Shown here: piece after piece, positions 62,692-63,621 of the stretch
How positions within the stretch are numbered: the first letter of the stretch is position 1
How the letters are laid out: every line of letters begins with the position of its first letter
Assembly: GCF_030013205.1 (NCBI RefSeq)
Contig: NZ_CP122648.1
Direction: 5' to 3' (one strand)
Length of the DNA stretch: 64,000 nt
Origin: Escherichia coli
Lineage (GTDB): Bacteria; Pseudomonadota; Gammaproteobacteria; Enterobacterales; Enterobacteriaceae
The notes under the pieces: model-generated
Seen by the model: the letters and a program-made list of their open reading frames with translations, nothing else
Database searches by the model: none
Told to the model about the DNA's origin: nothing
Translations under genes and position numbers: made by a program

Positions 62692-62699
62692 AGGTTTTT
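62692..62699. repeat. left target-site duplication of IS1 (AGGTTTTT, possibly 9 bp AGGTTTTTG)
   Basis: Same 8-9 nt found directly outside both IS1 ends. Confidence 0.8.
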
Positions 62700-62714
62700 G
62701 GTAATGACTCCAAC

Positions 62715-63218
62715 TTACTGATAGTGTTTTATGTTCAGATAATGCCCGATGACCTTGTCATGCAGCTCCACCGATTTTGAGAACGACAGTGACTTCCGTC
62801 CCAGCCTTGCCAGATGTTGTCTCAGATTCAGGTTATGCCGCTCAATGCGCTGAGTATAACGCTTGCTGATAACGTGCAGCTTTCCCTTCAGGCGTGATTC
62901 ATACAGCGGCCAGCCATCCGTCATCCATACCACGACCTCAAAGGCCGACAGCAGGCTCAGAAGACGCTCCAGTGTGGCCAGAGTGCGTTCACCGAAGACG
63001 TGCGCCACAACCGTCCTCCGCATCCTGTCATACGCGTAAAACAGCCAGCGCTGACGTGATTTAGCACCGACGTAGCCCCACTGTTCGTCCATTTCAGCGC
63101 AGACAATCACATCACTGCCCGGTTGTATGCGCGAGGTTACCGACTGCGGCCTGAGTTTTTTAAGTGGCGGAAAATCGTGTTGAGGCCAACGCCAATAATG
63201 CGTGCACTGGCGCGACAT
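62715..63218 (-). CDS. insB: IS1 transposase InsB reading frame (expressed as InsAB' by -1 frameshifting)
   Basis: 167-aa ORF recognised as IS1 InsB. Confidence 0.93.
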
Positions 63219-63412
63219 CCGACGCCATTCATGGCCATATCAATGATTTTCTGGTGCGTACCGGGCTGAGAGGCGGCGTAAGTGAACTGTAGTTGCCATG
63301 TTTTACGGCAGTGAGAGCAGAGATAGCGCTGATGTCCGGCGGTGCTTTTGCCGTTACGCACCACCCCGTCAGTAGCTGAACAGGAGGGACAGCTGATAGA
63401 AACAGAAGCCAC
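63137..63412 (-). CDS. insA: IS1 InsA (transposition inhibitor / N-terminal part of transposase)
   Basis: 91 aa [43 protein letters not shown]... Confidence 0.95.
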
Positions 63413-63467
63413 TGGAGCACCTCAAAAACACCATCATACACTAAATCAGTAAGTTGGCAGCATCACC

Positions 63468-63475
63468 AGGTTTTT
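63468..63475. repeat. right target-site duplication of IS1 (AGGTTTTT, possibly 9 bp)
   Basis: Identical to the sequence at the left junction. Confidence 0.8.
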
Positions 63476-63621
63476 GCGATATTTAGCTTTTGTCGTTGGA
63501 AAATTCGCTATTTTTTTGACTTAAGTTAAACAACATCCCTTATTGCTGGCAGGTTATTAAACTGTTGAGCGAGGGTAAAGGATAGTGTCAAATAGCCATC
63601 ATACTTCAATGAGAGGCAATG

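Follow-up and report, generated by a model that had tools for sequence, protein, structure and literature searches.

An IS1F-like insertion between the divergent promoters of blr and ydgJ in porcine Escherichia coli ETEC4079

Few bacterial insertion sequences are as well understood as IS1. Its transposase, InsAB', is made by programmed frameshifting and acts on the terminal inverted repeats of the element, and repair of the staggered target cuts leaves a direct repeat on either side of the new copy, most commonly of 9 bp. IS1 is reported to prefer AT-rich DNA (Zerbib et al. 1985, as cited in PMC9330008). Passages of PMC8764528 and PMC9330008 that cite Prentki et al. 1986 further state that the inverted repeat carries an outward-facing -35 hexamer and that hybrid promoters form with the flanking DNA where this offers a suitably spaced -10. 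In the published cases (Prentki et al. 1986; afaA in ST131, PMC8764528; acrEF in Salmonella and E. coli), which were either selected or measured at the transcript level, an outward -35-like hexamer in the IS end is separated by 16-18 nt from a flanking -10-like hexamer and points at a downstream gene. The consequences for neighboring genes vary, and in the ST131 study (PMC8764528), where IS1 lay upstream of three genes, afaA went up, osmB went down and ugd was unchanged.

Here we describe a copy of IS1 in the intergenic region between blr and ydgJ, within a window of 64,000 nucleotides, which is the whole stretch of DNA that was analysed (Table 1). A 1,701-bp query covering positions 62300-64000 gave a 100% full-length match in E. 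coli ETEC4079 (NZ_CP122643.1; pig faeces, Belgium). We consider it very probable that the copy results from a genuine, recent and lineage-private simple transposition of an IS1F-like element in ETEC4079, and that it is most likely neutral or mildly regulatory in effect.

An initial annotation of the sequence had called a complete IS1 with insA, insB and both inverted repeats. The ends, the open reading frames, the frameshift motif, the match to the protein family model NF033558 and the RefSeq annotation of 62700-63467 as 'IS1 family transposase, programmed frameshift' all bear this out. The element has the expected length of about 768 bp and imperfect terminal inverted repeats of about 23 bp that begin with GGT. 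It also has overlapping insA and insB' frames with an A6C site for -1 frameshifting, high nucleotide identity to the MG1655 IS1 copies and a target-site duplication in the range of 8-9 bp. The overlap of the two frames spans 63137-63218, around the A6C motif. InsB scores 148.1 bits against NF033558, the NCBIfam IS1 transposase model (cut-off 100 bits), over profile positions 76-199; for InsA, profile positions 1-81 are matched at 86 bits. The ETEC4079 element is an ordinary IS1, already annotated in the public genome record.

Among the K-12 MG1655 copies, IS1F (NC_000913.3 4518472-4519239) shares with the ETEC4079 copy the length of 768 bp, the same IRR variant (…CAGTAAGTTGGAGTCATTACC) and the same A6C site, and the two are identical at 737 of 768 positions (96.0%), with 31 substitutions. 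They differ at the start of the IRL, which reads GGTGATG in the ETEC4079 copy and GGTAATG in K-12 IS1F, and in coding capacity, given that insB is annotated as a pseudogene in K-12 IS1F, whereas insA and insB are both intact in ETEC4079. The K-12 copies IS1A, IS1B and IS1D (IS1R-type) agree with the ETEC4079 copy in length, organisation and inverted repeats. Nucleotide identity to IS1A and IS1D is 716-717 of 768 (93.3-93.4%; 717/768 for IS1A), and InsA differs from that of the IS1A/B/D-type copies at 3-4 residues (four for IS1A). The label that PGAP gives to the ETEC4079 copy is the generic 'IS1 family', not 'IS1A/IS1B family'.

Table 1 Features of the blr-ydgJ region and its IS1 copy in the window.
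Feature	Position	Strand	Details
blr CDS	62480..62605	-	41 aa; small membrane divisome protein
Distal ydgJ-direction TSS	62577	+	antisense within blr CDS; PMC3415461 string, 0 mismatches
blr TSS	62644	-	PMC3415461 string, 0 mismatches
blr core promoter TTGCTG-17-TAACAT	62644..62680	-	-35 at 62675-62680, -10 at 62652-62657; hexamers by inspection
Target-site duplication, left copy, AGGTTTTT	62692..62699	+	8 bp
Complete IS1, IS1F-like variant	62700..63467	-	768 bp; same transcription direction as blr
IRR, GGTAATGACTCCAACTTACTGAT, blr-facing	62700..62722	+	inverted-repeat pair with IRL
insB frame	62715..63218	-	167 aa; made as InsAB' fusion via -1 frameshifting
insA	63137..63412	-	91 aa, GTG start; ORF list, N-terminal NF033558 alignment
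Programmed -1 frameshift motif TTAAAAAAC	63155..63163	-	intact; element position 305, as in K-12 copies
insA promoter-like site of the element, CTGCCA-16-TATGAT	63460..63433	-	overlaps IRL; consensus scan
IRL, ATCAGTAAGTTGGCAGCATCACC on the plus strand, GGTGATGCTGCCAACTTACTGAT on the minus strand, ydgJ-facing	63445..63467	-	
Hybrid promoter-like site, TTGGCA-18-GATATT	63454..63483	+	preceded by TG (TGcGATATT); consensus scan
Target-site duplication, right copy, AGGTTTTT	63468..63475	+	8 bp; G at 63476 is native flank
Proximal ydgJ TSS	63601	+	PMC3415461 string, 1 mismatch
ydgJ CDS, 5' part	63624..64000	+	oxidoreductase; cut by window end

The history of the locus can be read from its junctions. 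Deleting the 768-bp element together with 8 bp (776 bp in all) leaves 925 bp that are base-for-base identical to the empty site of the sister strain ETEC4067. Such a pattern does not arise by chance: the element is complete and the empty allele can be restored exactly, which together are diagnostic of transposition. The target-site duplication and this reconstruction also uphold the earlier view that the element arrived by simple transposition, not by recombination between copies. Re-inspection of the direct repeat found a copy on both sides of IS1, so that part of the initial annotation stands; its option of a 9-bp repeat was dropped, and the length settles at 8 bp.

The longer repeat was considered because a repeat search returns an exact direct repeat of 9 nt, AGGTTTTTG, at 62692-62700 and 63468-63476 with a spacing of 776 bp. 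Read in this way, the duplication would have the canonical IS1 length, as it does in two of six comparison copies, and the element would measure 767 bp without its terminal G. The comparison copies, which are 768/768 identical to the ETEC4079 element and lie at unrelated sites, argue otherwise. All six start GGTAATG and end CATCACC, and the flank bases that precede them are g, t, g, a, t and g. Given that the copies start with GGTAATG whatever base precedes, we assign the G at 62700 to IS1, which leaves the 8-bp AGGTTTTT as the duplication. The K-12 copies IS1A, IS1D and IS1F likewise each measure 768 bp and have GGT at both ends. Three of the six identical copies have duplications, of 9, 9 and 8 bp (the last at L015), and three have none; hence, 8 bp is a normal length for this element. 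We reject the 9-bp reading as very unlikely; the DNA is the same on either reading, and the choice between them is one of bookkeeping.

Misplacement of an IS1 copy at this locus during hybrid assembly has to be weighed against the same junctions. Insertion sequences often cause misassembly, and the ETEC4079 chromosome contains about 22 IS1-like places, but a misplaced copy would not give an exact 8-bp duplication, perfect termini and otherwise identical flanks. We rejected an assembly artefact on these grounds and give it next to no weight.

The distribution of the insertion was surveyed in 5,426 complete E. coli genomes, in which a locus was scored as occupied if a place covered at least 80% of the query. 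IS1 is present at the blr-ydgJ locus in three of them and the ETEC4079 allele in one; in the remaining genomes the site is empty, and the query aligns there in two parts that together span 925 bp. The matches listed include 13 porcine strains with 100%-identical flanks and an empty site (K_EC180; two O139:H1 strains; ETEC1748, 4067-4071, 4075, 6333/6334 and 1701). In MG1655, blr and ydgJ are 242 nt apart without an IS, in agreement with the initial annotation, and its suggestion that the insertion is strain-specific agrees with an allele found in 1 of 5,426 complete genomes, the two other carriers being independent events. An exact-match scan of a metagenome contig collection did not find the right junction, and full-text searches found no paper on blr together with ydgJ, or on ETEC4079.

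These counts also bear on whether the IS1-bearing allele was imported from another strain by homologous recombination, which is conceivable in that E. coli recombines and that IS1 copies of the same variant are carried on conjugative plasmids in the same strains. However, the junctions occur in no other genome of the 5,426, the right junction was not found in the metagenome contigs, and sister porcine strains with an empty locus show 100% identity to ETEC4079 in the flanking sequence. An imported allele was rejected on this evidence as exceedingly improbable. Simple transposition in ETEC4079 thus remains the preferred reading, and the event is a real, recent and ordinary one, in which a well-understood element behaves as expected. 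In outline, an active IS1F-like copy would have inserted into the AT-rich blr-ydgJ intergenic region and produced the 8-bp target duplication. InsAB' would have been made by -1 frameshifting at the A6C motif and would have acted on the two inverted repeats of about 23 bp; the target would have been cut in a staggered manner, and the flanking direct repeat would have arisen when these cuts were repaired. The GC content of the flanks is 37%, compared with 50.6% for the whole window, and AT-rich target flanks fit the known preference of IS1.

The two other occupied genomes, EC22 (NZ_CM169479.1) and 10035776-3 (NZ_CP159170.1), carry IS1 at the same locus and in the same orientation as ETEC4079, each with its own duplication. 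Their elements are of the IS1A/B/D type, are flanked by 9-bp duplications at other positions and each differ from the ETEC4079 copy at 51 of 768 positions. In EC22 the IS1A-type copy (L003 1879-2646) lies 72 nt upstream of the blr ATG with the duplication TAGCTCCAG. It sits 33 nt upstream of the mapped blr transcription start site (TSS), and the blr -35 hexamer is replaced, which would make this insertion more likely than that in ETEC4079 to alter blr expression. The IS1B/D-type copy in 10035776-3 (L002 2061-2828) follows codon 4 of ydgJ and has the duplication AGCGACAAC. PGAP calls a full-length ydgJ in this genome from an ATC codon inside the IRL of IS1 (N-terminus ITSDNIRV as opposed to MSDNIRV), and ydgJ is probably separated from its own promoter and start codon. 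We also considered the locus as an insertion hotspot and rejected the idea, given that a rough random estimate (about 11 IS1 copies per genome x 260 bp / 5 Mb x 5,426 genomes) predicts about three insertions and three were observed. The shared orientation of the three has a 1-in-4 chance.

At the level of the element, IS1 copies with at least 99% identity to that of ETEC4079 were found in 150 of 20,395 records. The best 30 of the matching rows, each 100% identical, are all from swine or wild boar and include both chromosomes and plasmids. Copies identical at 768/768 positions occur in more than 30 pig records, and the plasmids that carry copies are virulence-type. Among the matches listed, the variant is thus found almost only in E. 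coli from pigs and wild boar. Related porcine chromosomes hold about 13-23 IS1-matching places each, and IS1 copy number varies among sister strains. The presence of identical copies at different sites, together with this number of places per chromosome, points to a variant that would be active and recently expanding, and to an insertion in ETEC4079 that would itself be recent. The pattern suggests a host-lineage-associated IS expansion and could be of interest for the study of IS expansion in host-adapted lineages. Three 100%-identical copies have no flanking direct repeat, namely L010 (UMNF18, by rcsA), L011 (K_EC180, by selB) and L013 (P13-6, by dcuC), and two of them adjoin truncated genes, the rcsA and dcuC pseudogenes. 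A pattern of this kind is what IS1-mediated adjacent deletion, or recombination between copies, leaves behind.

The position of the element relative to its neighbors is close to what the initial annotation had estimated. The start codons of blr (62605) and ydgJ (63624) lie 94 and 156 nt, respectively, from the nearer end of IS1, for which spacings of about 95 and 155 bp had been given, and the empty intergenic region measures 242 nt, for which the estimate was roughly 240 bp. Transcription start sites for both genes are available from Kim et al. 2012 (PMC3415461, supplementary file 2), who place one TSS 39 nt before the blr ATG (57 reads) and another 23 nt before the ydgJ ATG (26 reads). The same data set contains a second TSS in the direction of ydgJ, 271 nt upstream of the ydgJ ATG and inside the blr coding region (12 reads). 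These are start sites of K-12, not of ETEC4079, and their 51-nt promoter strings were mapped to the window. Relative to them, the two ends of IS1 lie at -56 of the blr promoter and at -134 of the proximal ydgJ promoter.

Judged by their sequence, both mapped core promoters and both coding regions are intact in ETEC4079. The A-rich stretch at about -46 to -38 of the blr promoter is also intact, and upstream of -55 the native sequence is replaced by IS1 IRR DNA. The position of both core promoters outside the inserted element makes a large effect on expression less likely a priori. The blr -35 hexamer, TTGCTG, is a weak match, and for this reason the blr promoter might draw on upstream DNA that IS1 has displaced. 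On the ydgJ side, a transcript from the distal start at 62577 would enter IS1 after 123 nt; given the strong polarity of IS1, it probably does not extend as far as ydgJ any longer. Five unannotated ydgJ-direction transcripts are listed for the MG1655 intergenic region (1704339-1704497 and shorter) in an RNA-seq compendium (PMC10392735, Supplementary Table 3), as would be expected if IS-free strains have some transcription through the insertion point. Together with the distal TSS, they suggest that ydgJ has a long leader or that blr has an antisense RNA. The Cappable-seq, ROSE and Romero et al. TSS supplements have no entry for the blr-ydgJ locus. In the sequence of events that we propose, IS1 would cut off the minor distal ydgJ-direction transcript, DNA of the IRR would take the place of the blr promoter sequence upstream of -55, and a hybrid promoter at the junction of IRL and flank may add transcription toward ydgJ. 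The predicted net outcome is most likely a neutral or mildly regulatory polymorphism.

The candidate hybrid promoter combines TTGGCA inside the IRL with the -10-like GATATT in the flank and points at ydgJ. It is present in the occupied allele and absent from the empty allele in the same consensus scan. It consists of an outward -35-like hexamer in the IS end spaced to a -10-like hexamer in the flank, as in the published IS1 hybrid promoters. The match is 9/12 overall, with a -10 that matches at 4/6 positions and a long spacer of 18 nt, and TTGGCA was assigned as the outward -35 by the consensus scan alone. As a base rate, we placed the IRL end computationally at each position of the window in turn and applied the same criteria. 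Such a match arises at 4.6% of sites and at 10% of AT-rich sites; with the TG included, the rates fall to 0.25% and 0.5%, respectively. Unlike the published cases, with their selection or transcript measurements, the ETEC4079 site is a prediction from sequence. It also lies 134 nt upstream of the ydgJ ATG, and ydgJ keeps its own promoter. The site is a plausible candidate, but we think it rather unlikely to be a functional promoter.

A stronger version of this scenario treats the insertion as regulatory. The TTGGCA of the IRL and TGcGATATT would drive ydgJ from a start near 63490, and blr expression, and with it envelope or beta-lactam phenotypes, may also shift through the lost upstream DNA or through host factors bound at the IS1 end. 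The occurrence of the site only in the occupied allele, the rarity of its TG version (0.25-0.5% of arbitrary sites), the weak blr -35 and the hybrid promoters described for IS1 in the passages of PMC8764528 and PMC9330008 that cite Prentki 1986 speak for it. Against this, the spacer is 18 nt, the -10 matches at 4/6 positions and both native core promoters are intact, and one of the three IS1 insertions upstream of genes in PMC8764528 raised expression. Selection has left no signal either, given that the allele is in one genome and that the three insertions at the locus compare with about three expected. To our knowledge, ydgJ has no link to a phenotype. Overall, we regard a regulatory insertion as a doubtful, minority reading. 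That the IRL-flank junction acts as a functional new ydgJ promoter, that the displaced DNA upstream of -55 changes Blr levels, or that both occur, appears more improbable still.

If such effects were real, ETEC4079 would differ from its IS-free sisters by a heritable phenotype in the envelope, cell division or beta-lactam tolerance, and the locus would be a natural case of IS1-driven regulatory micro-evolution in a swine ETEC clone in which the variant expands. On the preferred reading, a simple and probably neutral or mildly regulatory transposition, the ETEC4079 insertion is of little importance beyond strain typing. Among near-identical Belgian porcine ETEC genomes, the insertion can serve as a clean private marker of ETEC4079, and ETEC4079 and ETEC4067 form a natural near-isogenic pair for gauging the effect of IS1 at -56 and -134 of two divergent promoters.

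In window positions 1-62300 no other IS1 end was found. The purR gene had been considered as a private allele on account of a new protein accession and was rejected, as the gene is 100% identical in many genomes. This part of the window is ordinary syntenic core chromosome, with ydiJ, the suf operon, lpp, pykF, ydhY-T, mdtK and purR, followed by sodB, lhr, nemRA and slyAB, on to rsx, ydgK and cnu.
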